A stretch of 62,986 nucleotides of DNA, filler included, from Globobulimina sp. (taxonomy: Eukaryota): assembly GCA_003354225.1 (NCBI GenBank). It is 39 parts of 39 records of this genome, joined end to end, with 100 filler letters (N's around TTAATTAATTAA, not from the genome) between each part and the next. Parts side by side here need not be neighbours in the genome. Positions count along the whole stretch, not along the records: positions 61,471 to 62,986 come from PIVH01015442.1; 38 more parts are not named here. One strand, 5' to 3'. Of this stretch, positions 2,889 to 62,986 are shown piece by piece (positions within the stretch are counted from its first letter, which is position 1; every line of letters begins with the position of its first letter). The notes beneath the pieces are model-generated. The model was not told the DNA's origin. It saw only the letters and a list, made by a program, of their open reading frames with translations, and did no database searches. The translations under genes were made by a program, and so were the position numbers.

Positions 2889-3092
2889 TGCACTTACAAT
2901 TACAAGACAACGAAATGTGCTGTTCTAATGACGTAATTATACCCAATCATAATTACATCCAAAAATTCCTGGCTCAATAATACTTTAATGACTAAATGAC
3001 TTATCTATTAAAAGTCATCGTTATCCAAAATAGGTTTTATGTGCTTGATGTTTTCAAAAACAAAATCACATACTTTTCTTTAGGTTTAACTT

Positions 3093-3138
3093 AACGATAT
3101 ATTCCAAAAGATAACCCCCCCCCGTTTGGATAACCCCC
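3093..3138 (+). repeat. Dispersed repeat end AACGATATATTCCAAAAGATAACCCCCC (copy 1)
   Basis: Near-identical copies at 14435-14466 (+) and 17817-17849 (-), all at contig ends. Confidence 0.8.
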
Positions 3139-3238
3139 NNNNNNNNNNNNNNNNNNNNNNNNNNNNNNNNNNNNNNNNNNNNTTAATTAATTAANNNNNN
3201 NNNNNNNNNNNNNNNNNNNNNNNNNNNNNNNNNNNNNN

Positions 3239-4757
3239 CTTCCTCTTCGGACGTATCACTTTCCATGTTTGAATTTTCTCCTTCCGGGACTATGCGTCGT
3301 TCCCGGGGAATCATCACTCTTGTTACTTTTGCTGGTATATAATACATGTAACAAAATGATCCAACCGATGCTGTATCTGCATTATAGGTGTCCTTCTGTG
3401 GCATCATCTGACATGGTCTCACTGACATGTAGGATTCTACTCCTTCATCTGATGCAACTACTACATTCCACAACATGATATCTTTTGGAGCATCACTTCC
3501 TTCATAACGTAGATCTGCTTTCTTGTGTTCTGTTGTCTTCACAAAATTTCGAATTACTCCAATTGTTTCTTCCACTTTAATTCTTGCTGTAAATTGTCCA
3601 ACTTCCGCATACATACGACAATGAAGTCCACGGGGCATCAATAATGGGCGCCCTGGTAATCCTTCATTGTTCCATACTTCATATGGTTGATCTTGTATGC
3701 AAATGCGTAATATCACCTGGTCATTTCGCACAAATTGTGTCACATATGGTTGTTTAAAGTCTACTGTGGCTCTGTCGTCATCGCCCCAAAACTTTGCAGT
3801 TTCATTGGGCGCTTTGAACCAACATTTGAGGTACCCTGTCTTCTCAAGTGATTGATCTTTGTAATTACGGATGTAAGATAGCCATCCCATATTTGATATA
3901 TTCATCGTTGTATGACCAGCTGCTCTTCGCAATGCTGTCATTCTTCGCCAGGATCCATCCGTAATACGGAACAATACCAAATTACTGACATGAATTATAA
4001 TTGCCGTCACGTCAAAAGTCGTAGCATCATCTGGTGCTTGATATGCTGTTCCGAATAATGGTGTTCCTGCTTCGATCAAATCTGGATTACCCATTCCCAA
4101 CCCAAAGGAAGTAATCGTATCCCAGTGTTTTCCCGCTTTTGTGATCTCTGAGTCCTGTAACCATTCACTAACTCCACTTGTTCGCAACGTTAGTTCTTCT
4201 GGAGTTCCGTAGTATTCAAGTAATACTGTGTACGGTGAACGTCGCAATTGGGCAAGCTCCTCGTCTAGTAGCAACCGATTGACTAGAGCCATTCTTGCTC
4301 TCTTATTATGGATACCTCCTATCAATTCTTGTATCAATGTTATTTGATACTTGAAAAACAGGGCTTTGGTTCTCTGGAATGCTTGATCCATATTTTCATA
4401 TACCACAGGCAATTCCTCCAGTACTATTTGTTCTTCTGTAATTTGTTTCAGTGCCAATTTCTCTCTTTTGATTGACGGAATTTTCTCTACACATTTCTCC
4501 AACAACTCTGGTTCCCAACCATTCAATATTGTGTACAATTGTCCTTCTGGTACTTTCATCTCAATCATATGCTGAATGTTCTTAATTCGTGCTTCATCTG
4601 AAGCTGTTGAATTCATAGCATATAATGTATCATCATATGTTTCCCAAGTTCGAGTGGCAATCTTCTTATTTCGAGAGGGTATTGTCAACCGTTTTCGTCC
4701 ACATGGTTTCTCCTCTGATTGATTACTAACCACATGCTTTTCTGGTGACCCTTCTGT
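3239..4757 (-). CDS. Intronless hypothetical protein, ~500 aa, partial
   Basis: Open frame over essentially the whole contig; no family recognised. Confidence 0.6.
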
Positions 4758-4881: not shown

Positions 4882-6376
4882 ATGCATGACACACCCCGAG
4901 AACTATCAAATTGTTCATTCAATATCCATGACCACTCAACCTTCAATCTCCACGATAACGACCATGACAATGACGACCACGAAACACCCATTTCACCCGA
5001 AGAGAATTCCAAAAACACCACCAAAGCCACCACCACCTCTCCCTTCATCGCATCGAGTATAAAAAACACAGAAACCATTCAATGTATGGTACGAATCCGT
5101 CCCTTATTGTCCGACATTGAAACTAATGGCCGGATCTGTGTCGATTTAAACGAATCCAATAAAATGATTACCATCGATTGCAAGCCCAAAGAGAAAGCAT
5201 TCACGTTTGACCATGTCGGCGCTATGCAGTCTACGCAAGAGTCCATCTTCCAAACTGTGGGCAAACCCATTTCCAATGCGTGTCTATCTGGGTATAACGG
5301 CACAATATTCGCATACGGACAGACCGGTTCTGGCAAAACCTTCACTATCTTAGGTAAGCACCCTTCCTTTGTCCAACACTGAACATTGATATATGGCAAA
5401 TTCCCGTATCCAATCTCAGGCGACTTGGGAGATAAAAACAGCTCTCGCCGCGGATTAATGCCCCGCATATTTGACTACTTATTCTCTCAAATCCACCGTC
5501 ATCGGCAAAAGATGGGCATGGACCGCGTAGAATATCTGGTCAAATGCTCGTGTTTGGAGATCTACAATGAGCGCATTCAGGACTTGTTGGAACCGGATCG
5601 CTGTAACTTGCAGATCCGCGAAGATATAAAGCGCGGCGTGGTTGTGGAAGGGCTGTCTTATAAAATCTGTGAGACTGCAAACGATGCATTGGATTTGATC
5701 AACGTGGCGGGGCGAAACCGCCGCGTCTCTCAGACCGCGATGAACAAAGAATCGTCGCGCTCGCATTTAATGTTTACGCTGTTGATCGAATGCCGCATCT
5801 CTGACAATAACAACGAGAGCAACGGCAAGAATACGCCGCAAATCATCACGCAAACGCCGATATTTACGCGTACTGCGAAGAAGGGCAATGCTAAGAAATT
5901 GGTCCGTACTCGCACTTCGCGCTTCAATTTGGTGGATTTGGCCGGCTCAGAACGGCAGAAAAACACCCATGTGAAAGGGGAGCGGTTGCGCGAAGCCGGC
6001 AGCATTAACAAATCATTGACGGTGTTGGGCCATGTGATGAAAGCGTTGGTGCAGAGGAACGTGGATGAGAGCAACAACAAACACCGGCATATACATTATC
6101 GCGACAGTAAACTGACGCATTTGCTGAAGGACTCGTTGGGCGGCAACTCATTGACATTCATGATTGCTTGCATCTCGCCGTCGAGTATGAATTTATTAGA
6201 GTCTCTGAGCACGTTACAGTTTGCGCGCAGAGCGAAGTATATTAAGAATAAGGCGCAGTTGAACGAGGACCAAAGTGGCAGTGTTCAGGTGTTGAAGGCG
6301 GAGAATTTGAAGTTGATCAATGAAGTGGAACAGTTGAAGAATGTGATACGGAAACAGAAGATTTCGCTGTCGAGAT
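4882..6376 (+). CDS. Kinesin motor protein (kinesin-12/KIF15-like), 3'-partial
   Basis: VRIRP, AYGQTGSGKT P-loop, NKESSRSH switch I, LVDLAGSER switch II, HIHYRDSKLT; 66-nt intron 5354-5419. Confidence 0.95.
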
Positions 6377-6495
6377 NNNNNNNNNNNNNNNNNNNNNNNN
6401 NNNNNNNNNNNNNNNNNNNNTTAATTAATTAANNNNNNNNNNNNNNNNNNNNNNNNNNNNNNNNNNNNNNNNNNNNAATATCTGGTACACTTCCA

Positions 6496-6866: not shown

Positions 6867-7795
6867 ATGGACCATCGTCAACAGTTTGAACTACAGCGAG
6901 CAATCTCTGGTCCAGTCTCGGCATCCATACAGACCATGAACGACTCGTCGTTTCTGGTCTTTAGTGATAAAGTGGTGGAAGAAGACTCAGACGAAGAGGA
7001 TTTAGACAGATACACCGATGTCGGTTTAAGAGAGCAATTATTCATCACCTTATCGCGCGCTATACGGAGCACTCAGAATTCTGAACCCAAAATCACCGAA
7101 TCTGCCGTCCCTGAGTCTATAAAAAATAAACGCGGCCCACAACGTAGAAAACTAAACCCTTTGCAGTCACAAACACAAAACCAAGCAAAGGCTAAACAGA
7201 CTGGCAATGCGCCATTGACATTACCCAAACAATCATATTCCAAATACAATGACAGCCACACTAACAACCACAACAACGACCTGCAATATCACGGCCACCG
7301 CACCAACAAACCACCAAAAAACAAGTTGCAATCATACAATGATACTTTGTCCAAAAACGCCGCCTATTTTAAGTACGTATCGCCCATTCAATCATCTCCC
7401 AATCACAGCTCAATCATGAAACACAAAGAAAACAATCACCCACACAAACCCAAGTTGGCCACCGCCACTACCTCAGACCCCTCCACCTTCACTATAAAAG
7501 ACCGAAACTCGCGGTCCAAACACAAAAAAGTACACAAACGCCAACAGTCCAACATACGGCATTACTCCTCGCGTCTCAACGGTGGAAATACTGACGACGG
7601 CACGTATGTGTTCGACGAATATGATAATTATACGCGGTTTTCAGCCGTGCCGGCGTCAGAGAGTACAAATTCGTTTTCACGAAAGCGAAAGTCCAAATCG
7701 CCAAAGATCCACAGCACCCAATGCGACCAGCACATTATCAGTCGCTTGGAACAAGTGCGGAAGGACAAATCGGAGACAATTTTGCAAAATTTGCC
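6867..7795 (+). CDS. Low-complexity eukaryotic hypothetical protein, truncated at chimeric junction
   Basis: Long S/N/K/H-rich ORF; composition shifts abruptly to high GC after ~7795. Confidence 0.55.
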
Positions 7796-7994
7796 GCCCA
7801 CTTCACGCACACCTCGGCGGGATGCAGGCCGTGCGCTGCAGCGATCTCGAGCAGCACCGGATCCTCCAGGTCCACCGTGTCCCCTTCCACGCGGTCACGC
7901 TCGGGACGGCTCGGCGAACCGAGCGGGCAGAAGGCGATCGGCAGCACGTCGTGCGCAACACAGTAGTCGAAGAGCGCCGGCTGCTGGAAGTGCG
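7794..7994 (-). CDS. Bacterial-type aldo/keto reductase fragment
   Basis: PHFQQPALFDYC...PIAFCPLGSP.RPERD...EDPVLLEIAAAHGLHPAEVCVKWA; GC-rich codons. Confidence 0.85.
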
Positions 7995-8463
7995 NNNNNN
8001 NNNNNNNNNNNNNNNNNNNNNNNNNNNNNNNNNNNNNNTTAATTAATTAANNNNNNNNNNNNNNNNNNNNNNNNNNNNNNNNNNNNNNNNNNNNAAACAG
8101 ACTGATAATATAAAAAAGTCGCAAAAATGAATCTGCAGCAGGTTAAATAGGCATAGCAAATGCAAGCTGTGTGATAAGTACGCTGAAAAAAATGAAAAAA
8201 AACTTTTTGAACAGAAAAAAATTTGCAGCATTATCGGAGAGGCCTATTGTTTAGATTGCTGAGAATTTGTTGCTATATGTCCATAACGGTTGTGTGTTTT
8301 TTAATGAACTTTTTGAAGAGATCGAACTCGCTTCGATCATTATTCCGTGCCAAATAATTCGAGATTTCCTTTTGTTTTTTAATGTGTTTATAATTAGCAA
8401 TGAAAAACAAAAGGAAATATTGATGCTATCTATTTTAAATTAAATGTGATCGAGGACAAGAAA

Positions 8464-9343
8464 TCAATAGTAACGATTACCATATCTTCCAAATCTTGGC
8501 ATTCCACCAAAACCTCTTCTTTGTATTCTTTGAGGCTGAGGTCGAGCATTTGCATCATAATTATATGATTGTTGCAGTCTATTAAACGCTGCATCAATTC
8601 CTAACTGATCCACAATCTCAAAAACAGGATTAAATAATCCAATGCAACATAATAAACCAACAAAGATTCCACAAAGATGTCCTAAGAATGACGCGTTTGG
8701 TGTAATCAAACTTATTAACACCAATTCAAACCAACACAAATATTTTGTTGGTATAGAAAACCCCCAATAATTTGTATTTGCATTGCTGCCATGATTTAAC
8801 ACAACCTATGTTCAGACGTGTAACATAAACATAATAAACATATTATATAATTGACAATGATGTGTATTGGAACAAACATACTTTGAGAGCAAATAAAACC
8901 GCACTGAACCCGACTGCGCATGAATGGAAACTGGTGTCATAGTCCCAAATATGGCTCAGTAGCACAGCAACCAACACATAAAACAGTGATGATAGCAAAG
9001 TTGAGATGAGAATAAGCGTAAACAATCGAGCGGATCCAATGTTTCTTTCCAACTTCATTCCTTTCCATAATAATGATACCATATTGTAGTATAAATGCCA
9101 ACTATCCGCATGAAAAAATGCGGACAGAATCAACCTCTCATATTGGCCATGTTGAACGACAGATATTGGGCGAATGCAAACATCTGATAATGGAATGTAA
9201 TCGGCCATGAAATGAACTGCTATGTTGATCGCAAAGAATATTAAAGTCACAGGAGGGAGACGATTGAGTCCAATCTCCTGTAATTGGCCAAATAGTAATA
9301 ATAAGGGAAGGAAGTCATTTCTTCTTCTGTTATTTCGTGGCAT
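8464..9343 (-). CDS. RHBDD1: Rhomboid-family protease (RHBDD1/RHBDL4-like)
   Basis: PPVT, HADSWHLYYNM, catalytic GFSAV and GHLCG; 76-nt intron 8881-8806 gives ALKVVLNH. Confidence 0.88.
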
Positions 9344-9396
9344 TATGTTTCCTGATGACAACCAAAGGTTTTTATTCAAGTAACAGTGCTCTTTAA

Positions 9397-9612
9397 ATGG
9401 CATCAGATTCCAAAACAGCAACAAACAAAAAGACAGACGACAATTCCGACGCATACTTAGGTCAACCAATCGACCGCAGAGGCAAAACCCTGACCGACGA
9501 ACAAGCCGCGATCTTCCACCGCTACAACCAATGGAAAAACAACCTAATGTGTCTGTATAATCACATCGAATCCTACGCCCTGCCATACACGGCGCGGACA
9601 GTCCAATTCCTC
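9397..9612 (+). CDS. Histone-binding RBBP4/MSI1/CAF1-C-like protein, N-terminus
   Basis: YNQWKNNLMCLYNHIESYALPYTARTVQFL resembles the YKIWKKNTPFLYD...ALEWPSLTAQWL N-terminal motif. Confidence 0.7.
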
Positions 9613-16084: not shown

Positions 16085-16185
16085 NNNNNNNNNNNNNNNN
16101 NNNNNNNNNNNNNNNNNNNNNNNNNNNNTTAATTAATTAANNNNNNNNNNNNNNNNNNNNNNNNNNNNNNNNNNNNNNNNNNNNA

Positions 16186-16303
16186 TTGACTCGAACATAT
16201 GTGTAATCACTTTATGACTAAATAGTTCCCGGAATAATCCTAACCTAAACTGTATTTTTTTCTTGATTGGTTGACTCGAACATATGTGTAATCACTTTAT
16301 GAC
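16186..16303 (+). repeat. 33-bp exact direct repeat, 85-bp period
   Basis: TTGACTCGAACATATGTGTAATCACTTTATGAC at 16186-16218 and 16271-16303. Confidence 0.9.
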
Positions 16304-40449: not shown

Positions 40450-41838
40450 GGCATTTATTATCAATGCAGATTTAAAGATAGATTCGATGTCACATGGATT
40501 GTACCACATAATTTCACCCATCGCGTGCCAGAAGATGTGGATTATCGCGTTTTGAGTTCGTTTTTAGATTTTTATCAAGCGATGTTCAAATTTGTTATCT
40601 TTAAGTTGTACAAAGAGAGCAATATGAAATACCCTCCTTTTGGTCCCATTGATTACGATTTAACGCAATTGTCGCTCACCAAATTAATCGATCACAAGTT
40701 TGTAGTCAAACGGCGATTAAATTGGTGGAAAACTAAGAAAAGGGAACAGAAAAAAGACAACAGCACAGATAATGATAATAGCGGCGAAAAAGCAGAGGTA
40801 ACCAATGCAAATGGGACGAAACAAAACATTGTGAGTCTCAATTTAAGCAATATTTTAGGTGCAGACTCGACGCATTTTAATGAGGAATTGCCCAACGAAA
40901 ATGGAGAGGGGGCGGAGGGGAAATATTTGCGCAGAAAATGGGATCGAAGCAATTTATTCGAGGATTTTAAGTTTTTGTTAAATCGAGAAACGCCTCAATG
41001 TGAGTTGGAATTTATTATTTTGTGCATGGGCGGAAAGGTAGTATTCCCAGACTCGGATTGTATGAATGATACAGACATAACCCATCAGATTGTGGACAGG
41101 GAAATAAATGAAGCGGATTTGCTGAATACGAGGGAGTATGTACAGCCGCAGTGGGTCTTTGATTGCTTGAATACGGGCACTGTAATACCAACGCAACATT
41201 ATCAGATTGGCATACAGTGTCCACCGCATTTATCACCGTTTGTAGTGTATAACGATCAGTCGCATATTCCATCGCAACACTTTGTATTGGAACATTGGAA
41301 GAAAGTGTCGAAACAGTTTGGTGGCTTTGTGCCATCCAAGAGATTGAGCAAAAAAGATAGTGCAAACACGGAGGAGATTAAGGAGGAGAAAGAGGAGGAT
41401 ATTGTTATGAATATGAACTTAGATATTGCGGATATTATGGACCCGGAGCAGGGCAATGATGAGGAATTGAATGAATTTGTTGGTGATGATGAGGAGGAGG
41501 AGGAGGATGAGGATGAGGTGGTGGTGGATAAGGAAGTGGAGAGTGATAAGTTGGAGAATCGAGAGAGTGTTTTGGAAAAACAGAGGCTTGTGATTGCTGC
41601 GAAGGAGCGGAAGAGAGCGGGTCGGCCGCGAAATAAGCATTCGTTGGAGAAGGATGGTATACCGGGTACTAAGGCGGAATGGGCCAAAGTGCAGTTAGCG
41701 CGAAGTATGATGGCAGGGAAATATAGAAAGACGTATGATAGGATAAGAAGAAAGAAAACAAATCAAAATAAACGTCTTCGATATTTGGATGAAAAAAGAA
41801 AACGATTTGAATGGAATAAAATGCGTTCAAGACATTAA
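40450..41838 (+). CDS. PES1: Pescadillo homolog (BRCT), 5'-partial
   Basis: DVDYRV..FLDFY, LF....F.LNRETP, ITHQIVDR, REYVQPQWVFDC.N, PPHLSPFV. Confidence 0.95.
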   Translation, partial: GIYYQCRFKDRFDVTWIVPHNFTHRVPEDVDYRVLSSFLDFYQAMFKFVIFKLYKESNMKYPPFGPIDYDLTQLSLTKLIDHKFVVKRRLNWWKTKKREQKKDNSTDNDNSGEKAEVTNANGTKQNIVSLNLSNILGADSTHFNEELPNENGEGAEGKYLRRKWDRSNLFEDFKFLLNRETPQCELEFIILCMGGKVVFPDSDCMNDTDITHQIVDREINEADLLNTREYVQPQWVFDCLNTGTVIPTQHYQIGIQCPPHLSPFVVYNDQSHIPSQHFVLEHWKKVSKQFGGFVPSKRLSKKDSANTEEIKEEKEEDIVMNMNLDIADIMDPEQGNDEELNEFVGDDEEEEEDEDEVVVDKEVESDKLENRESVLEKQRLVIAAKERKRAGRPRNKHSLEKDGIPGTKAEWAKVQLARSMMAGKYRKTYDRIRRKKTNQNKRLRYLDEKRKRFEWNKMRSRH

Positions 41839-43683: not shown

Positions 43684-45200
43684 GGTATCTCATATCGGTT
43701 ACAATGGAGTGTAAAGACGGTAAGAAAACCGAAAAGATAATTACACAAAATTTCGTGTCAACAAAGGTCATAGATACAGAAAAATTTGAGCCAGATTTAG
43801 AAAATCTGTGGTTTGTCGCCGAATCAGACACAGATACAGGTTTTACGAATGATGACGAAATCGCTCAAACACACTTCGATAATACAGTAAAATTTAACGT
43901 AGACGAAAAGCGATATGAAGTTCAATATCCATATAAAGATAAAAATAAAGAATTAAATGATAATTATGAAGTCGCACATTTACGTTTACGTTCTCTACTT
44001 AAAAACTTGAGAAAACATCCTGGTATGTTAGAAAAATATGATCAAGTATTTAAAGAGCATTGAAAACTGGGAATTATCGAAGAAGTAACACCTGATATGG
44101 AAAACGGCGAAAAAACATATTATATACCACATCATTGCGTTATTAAACCTGACAGGGCAACAACGAAAATCAGGGTAGTATATGACGCATCAAGTAAACA
44201 AAAACCAGAAGATAATAGTCTAAACGAATTATTGTATAGAGGTCCGGTAGGACTCGAAGATATTGTCGGACTATGGTTACGATTTCGTAAAGAAAATATA
44301 GGAATCGTCGCCGATATAGAAAAAGCGTTTCTACAAATTCTCGTAGCACTAATGGACAGAGATGTAAATAGAATACTTTGGGTACGAGATATAAACAAGC
44401 CACTTACTGCTGACAATCTAATCATATACAGATTTGCAAGAGTCGGTTTTGGAGTAATATGCAGTCCGTTCCTATTGATGGCTACGATAAGACATCATTT
44501 AAAACTCGCCGTCACTAATAAAGATATTGCCGAGAAAATAGCAAAGAATTTGTATGTCGACAATGTGATAGTAAGCGAACCGGACTTAGAAAAAGCATTA
44601 CAATTTTATAAAGTATCCAAAGATATATTCGCACAAGCAGCAATGAATTTAAGAGAATGGAGTTCCAATTCACAAGAATTTATCGATAGTTTACCCCAAA
44701 ATGATAGAGCAAAGGGTGACGTAATAAAAGTTTTGGGAATAAATTGGGACTTAAAAAACGATCTCATTTCATTAGTTGATCCAAAGCTAAACGAGATAAA
44801 AGTAAAAACAAAAAGAAATCTGACGAAAGCAATCGCGAAATTATTCGATCCATTAGGCTTATTTTGCCCATACACCGCAGCTGGTAAATTATTGTTACAA
44901 ACAGTATGGAAAAGCGGTTTAGATTGGGATGAAAATTTGCCGTCTGATATTAAAGAACAATGGGAAAAGATAAAGCATATATTAAACATTGTGCCTACAA
45001 TAAAGTTACCCAGAATCGTAGGGCCAATAAAATCAGAATATACATTAGAATTACATTGTTTCACAGACGCCTCAGAGAAAGCATACGCAGCAGCTATTTA
45101 TTTACGTATAATCAATAATGACAAAATAACCGTAAAATTAGTTTATGCCAAGAACAGATTAGCCCCCATTAAAAGAAAACAAAAACCAATCTCAATACCA
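43684..45200 (+). mobile_element. BEL/Pao LTR retrotransposon pol fragment (RT and RNase H start); in-frame TGA at 44061
   Basis: YIPHHCVIK..ATTKIRVVYDAS, ADIEKAFLQI, FGVICSPF, YVDN, FDPLG, FTDASEKAY, KNRLAP. Confidence 0.93.
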
Positions 45201-45344
45201 NNNNNNNNNNNNNNNNNNNNNNNNNNNNNNNNNNNNNNNNNNNNTTAATTAATTAANNNNNNNNNNNNNNNNNNNNNNNNNNNNNNNNNNNNNNNNNNNN
45301 TCCACATTTCAACATTTCAACATTCTCTGTAGTTTCTGTACGTG

Positions 45345-59965: not shown

Positions 59966-61370
59966 TTACTTCCATAATCTTTTCTGTTTATTATTTTTTC
60001 GAACCTTTATTGTAGATTCATAATATCTATGTTGTGTTAATTTATTTCTATTTTTCAACATTTTTTTCTTTCCAGCAACACTTCCAACTGCTCCGCCATT
60101 ATAACTTTTAAAATTGTATTTTTTTTTATAATGTATCTGTTCAGAATGTGCATCTGTAAAATCTTCCATTTCATGCTCAAATAAAGGTGTCGGTAATCTT
60201 GCGGCATAAAAATCATTGTGAGCAATATCACTATTTGTCCTCTTTAAATATTGGCAATCTGTTTGATCCATCGACACTGGTTTAACTTTAGCAGAATGTG
60301 CCCTTTCTTTGCTTTTTTTAACTGACGATTTGTTTCCATTTCGTTGTTTTTTGAGACAAAATTTTTTAAATAATGATTTAATGGATTTATTCATTTGTTT
60401 GGATGCAATAAAAAATGGTGTTGTTCCATAAGAAGTCATTGTAAACAAATCAGAAATTACACTTTTCTGTAATAATAATTGAATAATATCTTTAAATCCC
60501 TTTTCAGCCGCCACATATAACGGTAATTTGCCCCGACATGATTTCAATCGTACATTAGCTCCAAAAGTGACTAAAATCCGAGCCACATCAAACCAGCCTT
60601 TATCGCATGCCATAAATAATGCAGTTTTACCGGCTTTTGATTGGGTGTTAATATTTGCGCCATTCTCTAACAATAATCTACAAATATTGACGTGCCCATT
60701 TGTAGCTGCATAATATAACAATGCCATTTCATTTTTATCTTTAAAATTCGTATTTGCGCCATGTGATATTAAATATGATGAACATAAATAATTTCCGGCA
60801 ATGGTTGCTGTCATTAATGCGGAATGAAACTTAATTCCATCTTTTTTATCAATATCCCATCGCAATGAATGCTTATATTTGGCGATGCTTTGTAATACAT
60901 TCAAATATCCTTTTAATGCGGCAATATGAGATACGGTGTGGTAATATGAGGAACACAGCTCATTGATTCTTGCATTTGGCAGCAAATATTCAACACTCTC
61001 AATATGTTGTTGTCTGCAGGCCAGATATAAAGGACTTAATCTATGCGAAAAACGTGAAGCTGCAATATTTAATATTCCATTCAAACATAATAATACTTTC
61101 TTATTCTTGACATTTTTAATAAATGTAATATATCCTTTGGATGATGCCCAACATAATATTTTCTTTGCTTTGTCGATATTATCCAGAGCTAAATGTACAT
61201 TTTGTAAAATTCCGATAATTTGTTGGTGTCTTAATTTTGTTGGTGTCACACAACCAAATATATCGCAAAATATATGATATGCGGACTCTTTTAATAGATT
61301 ATAAATCGTATGACTCGTTGCTGCAATTTTCGATTGTTCAGAAGGTAATAAATAATTAAGTGTGGCAAGT
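59966..61370 (-). CDS. Ankyrin repeat protein, partial
   Basis: Repeated TAL..A...G....V.LL..GA.VN units. Confidence 0.92.
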
Positions 61371-61472
61371 NNNNNNNNNNNNNNNNNNNNNNNNNNNNNN
61401 NNNNNNNNNNNNNNTTAATTAATTAANNNNNNNNNNNNNNNNNNNNNNNNNNNNNNNNNNNNNNNNNNNNAG

Positions 61473-61712
61473 CCCATAAAGCAAGTACTTAAAACTAATG
61501 GCCGGGTAACAAAAGTCGAGGACGATCTAAAGGACTTCAAAGAAAAAGAGTACGAAGTATTTAAGGAGGAAACAAAAAAAGACCTAGAAATCTTTTCATT
61601 GCTTAGGCGTAAGAAGTGGATTATATTTGTTTTTGTTCTTGCTGCAGCTCAAGTATATGAAACAATCAATGTTGTGAAGATAGTAAAATGGATAACAGCA
61701 CTTTTTATATAA
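61473..61712 (+). CDS. Phage-like small membrane protein, 5'-partial
   Basis: Own translation: ...KTNGRVTKVE...KWIIFVFVLAAAQV...WITALFI*. Confidence 0.5.
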   Translation, partial: PIKQVLKTNGRVTKVEDDLKDFKEKEYEVFKEETKKDLEIFSLLRRKKWIIFVFVLAAAQVYETINVVKIVKWITALFI

Positions 61713-61715
61713 ACC

Positions 61716-61811
61716 ATGGAAACACTAATAAATTATGCAGCGGCAATAATTACAGTCGCTACCGCTATTGCGATTTACTGGATTTGGATAAAGCGTAAGA
61801 AGAAAAAGTAA
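61716..61811 (+). CDS. 31-aa single-TM peptide
   Basis: METLINYAAAIITVATAIAIYWIWIKRKKKK*, 3 nt after the previous stop. Confidence 0.55.
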   Translation: METLINYAAAIITVATAIAIYWIWIKRKKKK

Positions 61812-61837
61812 ATTCTCTCAATTTTTTATTTGATTTT

Positions 61838-61869
61838 AACCCTCTGATTTTCAGGGGGTTTTTTGTTTT
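61838..61869 (+). terminator. Rho-independent terminator
   Basis: AACCCTCTGA-TTT-TCAGGGGGTT stem followed by T-run. Confidence 0.85.
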
Positions 61870-61904
61870 CAATTAATTAGTCAGTAAATTAAATATAAAG
61901 AAAG

Positions 61905-61935
61905 TTTGTATATATAAAAAAAGTTTATATCTTTG
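61905..61935 (+). promoter_or_regulatory. Bacteroidota sigma-A type promoter (-33 TTTG / -7 TAnnTTTG)
   Basis: TTTG 61905-61908, 19-nt spacer, TATCTTTG 61928-61935; A-rich leader without Shine-Dalgarno. Confidence 0.75.
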
Positions 61936-61965
61936 AAGTGTCAAACAAAAACAAAAATTAGTAAA

Positions 61966-62301
61966 ATGAAAGTATTAGAAAAAACTCCAGAACTAAAAGA
62001 TTGTTATACAATAGCAATAGCACAACAATTCGATGAAAAAACAAGAATTACTACTTCAATTGACAACATTACACCATTTGAAACCAAAGATGGGTATTGC
62101 GGATTTTGCATAGATGCTCACGACTTAGACAAGATTAAAATAATAGCATGTGGGAAGGATTGGGAGTTTAGCGGAATAACTCACAACAACAAAGCATTGT
62201 TTCACAAATATAAGCAATGGTTTTTAATTTCTACAAGTGGAGTATTACAACTCATAAGTACTAATGATGTTGGTGATATTCTGAATGGTAGAGATATTTA
62301 A
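61966..62301 (+). CDS. Phage-like hypothetical protein
   Basis: ATG after promoter and A-rich leader. Confidence 0.65.
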   Translation: MKVLEKTPELKDCYTIAIAQQFDEKTRITTSIDNITPFETKDGYCGFCIDAHDLDKIKIIACGKDWEFSGITHNNKALFHKYKQWFLISTSGVLQLISTNDVGDILNGRDI

Positions 62302-62372
62302 TATACTAATATGTCAGCTCCGCCCCGATGCTTTCGAGTGTCGGGAATTTGGTGGTAAACGAAATAAACAAT

Positions 62373-62528
62373 ATGAAAATCGAAAACACTGCAAAAGATT
62401 GTAATGAATGCGTTTACTTGGTTGATGGAAAATGCACCCACCCCAAACGAACCGAGCAAAACAAAATCGAAGAGGTTTCGATTGATGAAAGCTTTGGTTT
62501 GTGTGGCTGGTTTGAGGAAAACGATTAA
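62373..62528 (+). CDS. Small Cys4 protein
   Basis: CNEC......C...C.WF. Confidence 0.6.
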   Translation: MKIENTAKDCNECVYLVDGKCTHPKRTEQNKIEEVSIDESFGLCGWFEEND

Positions 62529-62550
62529 TTAACAAATAAAAAAAAGACAT

Positions 62551-62853
62551 ATGATAAATATTACAGAACAACAATTAAGAGAGGTAGTGACTCAGGCACA
62601 CATGGCAGGACAACACAACCAAGCGCATTGCGATCCAAGTTACTATGAGGCAGAGGTACATTGGCAAAAGAAAGTTAAAAATAATGCTTGTATAGATAAT
62701 GTTAGCATGAGTGAGCCTATTAACATCTTACTTAAATACATAGTTAATTGCTACAAAGTAATAAATAATGAAGATGATTATCGCAGAGAAATGATAAAAA
62801 TAAGCATGAAAGCAAGTGAGATATTAGAAGAATTTTCTAAACATTCATGCTAA
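62551..62853 (+). CDS. Phage-like hypothetical protein; C-terminal half lies inside a putative cassette
   Basis: 100-aa ORF whose TAA stop falls within the TAAC inverse core. Confidence 0.65.
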   Translation: MINITEQQLREVVTQAHMAGQHNQAHCDPSYYEAEVHWQKKVKNNACIDNVSMSEPINILLKYIVNCYKVINNEDDYRREMIKISMKASEILEEFSKHSC

Positions 62854-62912
62854 CGCTTGGCTAGAAATAAGCGAAGCGACCCGAAGGGTTATTTTTTAGC
62901 CATTTGTTATGT
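62848..62912 (+). mobile_element. Integron attC-like recombination site (65 nt)
   Basis: TGCTAAC...GTTATGT cores; inner arms TGGCTAGAAATAA / TTATTTTTTAGCCA; central ACCC-GAA-GGGT hairpin. Confidence 0.7.
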
Positions 62913-62986
62913 GTATTTATATTAAAAAAAAACAATATTATGTTAGTTATAAAAATAGCAGAAAAAATAAAAGATAAAGATTATCA

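Follow-up and report, generated by a model that had tools for sequence, protein, structure and literature searches.

A putative attC-type system for in-frame exchange of C-terminal gene modules in marine Bacteroidota-type phages

Shufflons (Rci) and the invertases of phage tail-fibre genes invert resident segments that carry open reading frames (ORFs) on both strands. Integrons are known for the shuffling of whole genes, and the attC clusters that were reported recently from phages consist of whole-gene cassettes as well. According to the sections of Qi 2023 (PMC9892861) drawn on here, attC clusters without an integron integrase (CALINs) occur in virulent phages including the Polaribacter phage P12002L, and IntI1 recombined five of six phage attC sites. 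The sole failure among the six was P12002L_attC1, a site detected by HattCI only, and P12002L_attC2 was recombined (PMC9892861). For the bottom strand of attC, which is the recombined one, a G after AAC is given as typical in the part of PMC2727003 used here, where loss of the extrahelical bases is also described to relax strand choice and to move the crossover to the R'' box. In the aadA7 control primers listed in the supplement of PMC9892861, AAC is followed by G on one strand and by A on the opposite one. Clusters of attC sites in phages are thus already published, and the locus described below is best read as a new variant, in which such sites act in frame within genes. A narrow literature search, which is no proof of novelty, returned no paper on in-frame fusion via integron attC gene cassettes. 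Based on sequence comparison, we suggest that the C-terminal half of a small phage ORF is a 154-nt exchangeable module of an attC-type exchange system in phages of the marine Bacteroidota type, a reading to which we assign a probability of roughly 0.6.

The window, i.e., the whole stretch of 62,986 nt that was analysed, consists of 39 unrelated pieces of about 1517 nt each, as seen from the map of its 38 linkers (N44-TTAATTAATTAA-N44). Due to this concatenation, neighbouring pieces are uninformative about one another. Eukaryote-type domains were detected in other pieces (25 ORFs scanned; Table 1), and only the last piece is part of the finding. A preliminary description of this DNA had spoken of a Bacteroidota phage-like contig; its phage-like character stands, but the "contig" is limited to the last 1516 nt of the 39-piece window. 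One public sequencing run contains the piece as a 1482-nt contig that is identical to positions 61478-62959, with nothing longer, and the direct context of the finding is therefore 1.5 kb. Apart from this contig and two short unrelated overlaps, that single run contained neither variants nor joints around the piece, nor recombination products.

A 5'-open ORF and a 31-aa hydrophobic ORF are followed on the piece by a terminator, three small ORFs, a hairpin, and the start of a further ORF. The 31-aa ORF (61716-61811) encodes one predicted membrane helix and then a KRKKKK tail; a strong intrinsic terminator (61838-61866) is situated 3' of it, and an AT-rich stretch comes next, before the ORF at 61966-62301. 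No significant match was obtained for the three local ORFs in Pfam or PHROGs, and none for the piece 61471-62986 by blastn against phage genomes. IMG/VR scans with the window protein, alignment A1, and the neighbouring ORF as queries gave no confirmed match and two genome-contig scans gave no match, while the sole yield of a metagenome scan was a distant family member (L001).

Table 1. Features of the window with their positions, strand, and the basis of assignment
Feature	Position	Strand	Basis or remark
Kinesin motor	5386-6432		Window piece outside the finding
Rhomboid	8843-9586		Window piece outside the finding
Pescadillo/BRCT	40525-41838		Window piece outside the finding
Pao retrotransposon peptidase/RT	44097-45248		Window piece outside the finding
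Ankyrin repeats	59966-61249		Window piece outside the finding
Phage-like fragment, 1516 nt	61471-62986		Last piece; sole part of the chimeric window in the finding
ORF, 100 aa: conserved N-domain, linker, variable C-terminal module	62551-62853	+	ORF map, family alignment
N-domain coding part, residues 1-44, motif AH[MR]AGQHNQ.HCDPS.YEA	62551-62682	+	Matched by 34 proteins at E ≤ 1e-3
Linker NACIDN, translated; semi-conserved among family members	62683-62700	+	Protein and DNA alignments
Core GTTAGCA (Val51-Ser52); switch point from conserved to variable	62701-62707	+	Alignment of window and L002
Putative mini-module, 154 nt, inverted cores at both ends, codes for the C-terminal 50 residues	62701-62854	+	End complementarity
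Inverse core TGCTAAC, includes stop TAA (62851-62853), followed by G	62848-62854	+	Sequence
attC-like imperfect palindrome: TGCTAAC, spacer GCT, stem TGGCTAGAAA/TTTTTTAGCCA, spacer TTT, GTTATGT	62848-62913	+	Folds
Terminator-like inner hairpin GACCCGAAGGGTT, then T run, in the palindrome loop	62878-62899	+
Core GTTATGT, closes the palindrome at its right; putative beginning of the following unit	62907-62913	+	Sequence, parallel in L006
5' part of the following ORF, truncated at the piece border	62940-62986	+	ATG at 62940

The sequence GTTAGCATGAGTG (62701-62713) is complementary to CATTCATGCTAAC (62842-62854) at 12 of 13 positions, including an exact run of 10 nt. This match, on which the preliminary description was built, was reproduced by recomputation, as were the stop of the ORF within the inverse core, the start of a new ORF after the site, and the reading of the module in frame as the C-terminal half. 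The two ends of the module are complementary over 10 exact nt, whereas pairing with the second GTTAG (62942) extends to only 5 nt. Taken on the window piece alone, however, the 12/13 match is within chance, since Markov simulations of the 1516-nt piece (n = 60) contained on average 1.3 comparable inverted repeats within 300 nt and at least one in 38% of the cases. Its significance therefore derives from recurrence in relatives and not from the piece itself. A translated remnant resembling the right arm of a site had also been proposed to precede position 62701; judged by eye, the linker DNA (62683-62700) indeed resembles the right (L') arm of the hairpin sites. An AF2 model of the 100-aa protein (pLDDT 79) consists of two helical hairpins (helices 6-20 and 31-43, then 55-70 and 74-98), with the pLDDT of the linker dropping below 50 exactly at residues 49-51. 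Foldseek gave no match in the PDB at E ≤ 0.001 and the best score of a protein atlas search was an uninformative 0.78, so that neither fold nor atlas search pointed to a function.

Among 1.84 billion representatives, 34 relatives at E ≤ 1e-3 match only the first 41-80 residues of the window protein; clustering of this database at 50% identity favours seeing diversity. P0025 (1094 aa, matching in six short stretches) was excluded from all alignments as likely spurious. The common part is a domain of about 44 residues (AH[MR]AGQHNQ.HCDPS.YEA...VK[KN]) plus a short semi-conserved linker, which usually ends in Val or Val-Ser. Homology among the relatives ends at residue 52 or thereabouts and the sequences beyond are unrelated. 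Including the window protein and L002, the family has 35 members, of which nine are short forms stopping at the linker and 26 carry long tails (at least 15 aa) that fall into 26 different clusters. Homologs that are always colinear in both halves, named in the preliminary description as the observation that would speak against a module, were hence not encountered. A few longer proteins carry the N-domain centrally or C-terminally. No Pfam family was matched by any of the 34 members scanned. The distant members L001, L003, and L004 show domain shuffling without GTTAG-type cores. On the higher-GC phage contig L004 (10001-10550), the N-domain gene and its downstream neighbour both terminate in the same module of about 45 aa (QQLKAEIAA...RQLSAV), with similar DNA after both genes and again no GTTAG-type cores.

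DNA is available for two members of the low-GC group of the family, the window and an IMG/VR contig of 4001 nt (L002). Both align through GTTAAAAATAATG...TGTTAG, followed by complete divergence. The core of L002 is a perfect GTTAGGC, the ORF stop is located within GCCTAAC, and the module ends of the N-domain gene are complementary over 10 exact nt and at 13 of 14 positions overall. GTTAGGC occurs in L002 in four copies of alternating orientation (317, 560, 674, and 827) at an expected number of 0.17, and none of 200 shuffles reached four. An imperfect palindrome of 121 nt connects the first inverse core to the next core; its R stem comprises 8 bp and its L stem 16 bp, and it folds with -16.3 kcal/mol (0 of 200 shuffles as good). 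The loop of this palindrome contains the start of a second small ORF, which reads the core as Val-Arg and stops again in GCCTAAC. A stand-alone gene of the Cellulophaga phages phi19:1 and phi10:1, which has its own start and its own terminator and lacks cores, shows 54% identity to the tail (residues 56-131) of the L002 protein.

Two further observations concern L002. When inverted, its modules 317-566 and 674-833 are open throughout (83 and 53 codons), which is not the case for the homologues in L006 and L007. Moreover, an inverted repeat surrounds the N-domain part (133-308); its left half, AAAGAAC-GT-AATTTTTAAC, precedes the start, its right half, GTTAAAAATA-AT-GTTTCTT, falls within the linker, and the N-domain ORF itself may lie in the loop of a hairpin site. 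This arrangement is plausible in L002, but the equivalent pairing is weak in the window, and it was not adopted.

For the second ORF of L002, 14 homologs were found. Its C-terminal module (SLPSHIDAG...GNEA, termed M_B) stands behind at least four unrelated leaders, and the L002 leader, near-exact in two proteins, precedes modules that are only 46-48% identical. M_B is present in five further IMG/VR loci (L006-L010); in case of L010 it is fused to another N-terminus and truncated. The ends of the module, situated 160 nt apart, read GTTAGGCTT...AAGCCTAAC in L002, GTTATGCCT...AGGCATAAC in L006, and GTTATACCT...AGGTATAAC in L007, L008, and L009. They are complementary over 9 nt in all three alleles, with changes on both sides. 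Exact matches comprise 8-10 nt between the own ends of a module, compared to 5-7 nt for cross pairs within a locus. The preliminary claim that end complementarity is specific for the individual cassette is thus confirmed in the three M_B alleles, and we consider this second-ORF family the strongest evidence for the proposed exchange.

The loci L007-L009 contain a 119-nt module, GTTAGCAG...CTGCTAAC, which uses the window core GTTAGCA and adds 34 Zn-ribbon-like residues in frame to a DNA methyltransferase ORF. Compared with tails of the N-domain family, these residues gave no match to P0008 and a weak one to P0003 (E 0.01, single comparison). Just upstream of this module, the methyltransferase of L007 (2895-3574) appears to be distributed over two frames that overlap (2895-3254 and 3167-3574), for which a frameshift, an error of sequencing, and a programmed event are conceivable reasons. 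Larger modules of L006 encode DNA methyltransferase as well. Furthermore, L007 contains one extra hairpin-plus-module unit with a whole ORF (3869-4227) relative to L006; the three-way junction of this indel is exactly at TAAC, and the flank is homologous in L006. The observed indel unit runs from TAAC to TAAC and comprises a whole ORF plus hairpin, so that the 205-bp cassette 62702-62906 of the preliminary description was not upheld as the unit. The L006 site at 783-885 has the pair TGCTAAC...GTTATGT as in the window, and the next module starts with GTTATGTGT in both. In L010 (13475-14072 and 16170-16626), a chain of small units with another core pair, GTTGTAT/ATACAAC, was noticed, with hairpins of 53 and 96 nt between the units; 16170-16298 is a further site of the L002 type.

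Folding confirmed the attC-like palindrome that starts at the ORF stop, with the extent given in Table 1. As single-stranded DNA it reaches -10.8 kcal/mol, compared to -6.2 ± 1.9 kcal/mol for shuffled sequences (3 of 200 as good); the z-scores are -2.4 for the plus strand of the DNA, -1.95 for the minus strand and for RNA, and -1.4 in a 120-nt context. Its R-box pairing is 4/7, and an Rfam search returned 16 weak rows, all far below the gathering scores, and no family. Relative to the consensus RYYYAAC/GTTRRRY, TGCTAAC, GTTATGT, and GTTAGCA of the window match at 5, 6, and 5 of 7 positions, respectively, while GCCTAAC and GTTAGGC of L002 match at 7 of 7. The same core variants are in use at the phage attC sites already in print.

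One asymmetric layout is common to eleven palindromic sites (window 1, L002 1, L006 3, L007 2, L010 3, and P12002L_attC1). An inverse core ending in AAC is followed by G, a spacer of 3-6 nt, a long stem, and a loop, then by the return stem, a spacer of 1-4 nt ending in T, and a core starting with GTT. The loop often houses the start of the next ORF. All eleven sites including that of the window possess R and L boxes with unpaired spacers and a variable terminal structure, an architecture as in attC sites. The G after AAC was found in 11 of 12 palindromic sites examined, always on the coding strand, with P12002L_attC2 as the exception. Whether the window site is an ordinary terminator had been posed as a counter-test; the eleven sites have the attC layout R''-spacer-L''...L'-spacer-R', though a terminator-like element lies inside the window palindrome. 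Canonical attC sites are defined by two or three extrahelical bases on one arm, which direct strand choice. These bases, which folding was expected to reveal, are mostly absent from the L stems: neither the G in L'' nor the T 6-8 nt further on was found in the 16-bp L stems of L002, L006 (2686), and L007 (3585), and the stems of the window site and P12002L_attC1 contain one additional T in the 3' arm as their sole bulge.

P12002L_attC1 follows the design of the window site, i.e., TGCTAAC, a spacer, a GGCTAAA-type stem with one extra T, ATT, and GTTAGGC. The 7-mer TGCTAAC is common to the window, the left end of P12002L_attC1, and the sites of L006 (783) and L007 (3585); in a MAFFT alignment of the window, L006, and P12002L sites only TGCTAACG is common. 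In P12002L, the gp35 methyltransferase is flanked by GTTAGGCAC...GTGCCTAAC, which match at 9 of 9 positions and delimit a 775-nt unit. The search for further attC-like sites was thus successful, yielding sites or cassette chains in L002, L006-L010, and P12002L. With a CALIN taken as at least two clustered attC sites without integrase, L006 (3 sites), L007 (2), and L010 (3) qualify by architecture alone; the window piece has one palindromic site and one orphan core. Because of the 4/7 R-box pairing, a generic attC-like scan missed the window site, at a background of about 1-2 matches per locus, and inverted GTT..AAC pairs of at least 8 nt are about as frequent in the long loci as in simulations. 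A chain statistic was reached by 0 of 100 simulations for L006 and L007, but it is also raised in the control loci L003 and L004. Generic scans and chain statistic are not discriminating and were not relied upon.

No match to an integron integrase (IntI) was found in any of seven related records. Six of these records lack a match to the tyrosine recombinase family PF00589, and the complete genome of P12002L is without one. The exception is L010 with a 437-aa tyrosine recombinase (7614-8927; PF00589, 29.6 bits), located 0.9 kb upstream of the fused gene. It gave no NCBIfam integron-integrase match and, as far as its sequence tells, is a generic recombinase and no identifiable integron integrase.

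We tentatively propose, at somewhat less than even odds, that these phages harbour an intragenic integron, in which near-symmetric hairpins would be recombined at both ends and genes or half-genes would be exchanged in frame. The comparison directly shows how the sites are built, that end complementarity is module-specific and accompanied by compensatory changes, that the proteins are mosaic, and that one unit differs as an indel. In the reading favoured at the outset, a module would start at a core such as GTTAGCA and end at the inverse TGCTAAC, which supplies the stop codon, with the attC-like hairpin next. Hairpin sites of attC architecture would separate the units, and crossovers could occur at either hairpin end. 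The sites appear to be inverted relative to the genes, so that a canonical crossover would fall between TAA and C, right after the stop codon, where it would move whole genes with the upstream hairpin; the L007/L006 junction at TAAC agrees with this position. The swaps between leaders and modules require crossovers at the other hairpin end, too. Crossovers between G and TTA, inside the reading frames, would re-pair leaders or N-domains with C-terminal modules in frame and could give rise to families such as the one with a single N-domain and at least 26 different tails. The near-perfect unbulged stems might allow the use of both strands, and such relaxed strand choice might permit the second-end crossovers. 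A tyrosine recombinase would act on the folded sites. It is probably Xer-like or integron-like and probably encoded by the host, because the complete phage P12002L has none. The small two-domain proteins of this system are plausibly counter-defence factors. The attC-type shuffling put forward in the preliminary description is thus in agreement with mosaic tails, site layout, and end complementarity, while the lack of an integrase, the scarcity of bulged bases, and the fact that no recombination was seen speak against it, as does the failure of IntI1 to recombine P12002L_attC1, the most similar site in print.

The same mosaic pattern could have arisen by rare homologous or illegitimate recombination at short linkers and subsequent selection, with no dedicated recombinase involved and the hairpins being terminators or regulatory elements. 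Phage genes are notoriously mosaic, a terminator-like element is present in the window hairpin, no recombinase for the sites was found, the module of the L002 protein exists as a core-free stand-alone gene in Cellulophaga phages, and L001, L003, and L004 shuffle domains without these cores. Ordinary mosaicism nevertheless leaves unexplained why end complementarity is module-specific and kept by compensatory changes in three alleles, why eleven sites have the asymmetric hairpin layout in common, and why the indel junction falls exactly at TAAC; we regard it as an unlikely explanation. Still less can be said for a chance resemblance in an AT-rich fragment, i.e., an ordinary gene plus terminator. 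The frequency of comparable 12/13 repeats in the simulated pieces and the weak fold z-scores would fit, but independent contigs and the genome of a phage isolate show the same cores, layout, and junction, and the junction lies where conserved sequence gives way to variable sequence throughout the family, which makes mere chance scarcely credible.

Inverted repeats of 8-10 nt around each module would also be expected if recombination between the cores flipped the module and switched the C-terminus in the manner of a shufflon. By symmetry, TAA stays in frame after flipping, and both L002 modules are open in the inverted frame. The flipped window module, however, stops after 5 codons, the flipped M_B modules of L006 and L007 contain two stops each, and all six M_B copies have one orientation relative to their leaders. 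As inversion furthermore does not need hairpins between modules and does not explain the unit indel, it is very improbable. Compensatory changes are a classical sign of RNA pairing, and the complementary ends could form a long-range mRNA stem that loops out the module and controls translation or stability, the mosaicism being unrelated. The window hairpin indeed folds better as RNA (-20.1 kcal/mol), but with a z-score of only -1.95 and no Rfam match. An RNA stem alone does not predict that the breakpoints between relatives coincide with the cores, and in P12002L the cores flank a 775-nt methyltransferase unit; pairing in the mRNA thus appears about as improbable as inversion.

If the proposed exchange takes place, intragenic cores at the border where one conserved domain meets its unrelated tails, at least 26 in number, would represent natural site-specific domain shuffling in viruses, a combinatorial generator of small two-domain proteins. 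It would account for the sharpness of mosaic borders within small early genes of phages. Accessory genes of phages, among them those for DNA methyltransferases, would thereby be linked to cassette systems of the flavobacterial hosts. The short portable sites might also be of use for in-frame cassette exchange.

Similar to shufflons, one invariant N-terminal part is combined in frame with alternative C-termini at short intragenic repeats; here, however, the inverted frames are not conserved and units differ between genomes rather than flip. With the canonical integron, as described in the part of PMC2727003 used here, the sites have in common the inverse core and core, the imperfect palindrome, the unpaired spacers, and the G after AAC; likewise, a unit begins with bases complementary to its own inverse core, which includes the stop codon. 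Unlike in the canonical integron, an IntI was not detected, the stems are largely unbulged, the side resembling the bottom strand is the coding strand, exchange apparently takes place at both hairpin ends, and ORFs start in the loop and read through the core. The closest relatives are the phage CALINs: as far as the sections of PMC9892861 drawn on here describe them, they share the occurrence in marine Bacteroidota phages and the cores TGCTAAC, GTTAGGC, GTATAAC, and GCATAAC. DNA methyltransferase cassettes are found in L006, L007, and P12002L alike, and a phage integrase in none of them. Whereas whole-gene cassettes are reported in those sections, the cores described here lie inside reading frames, and the modules comprise 119-250 nt and encode C-terminal halves only. 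Leaders and modules appear to be recombined in frame, and the end complementarity with its compensatory changes goes beyond what the same sections of PMC9892861 report. Judged from the sequences, some marine phages may recombine parts of proteins in the way in which integrons recombine whole genes.
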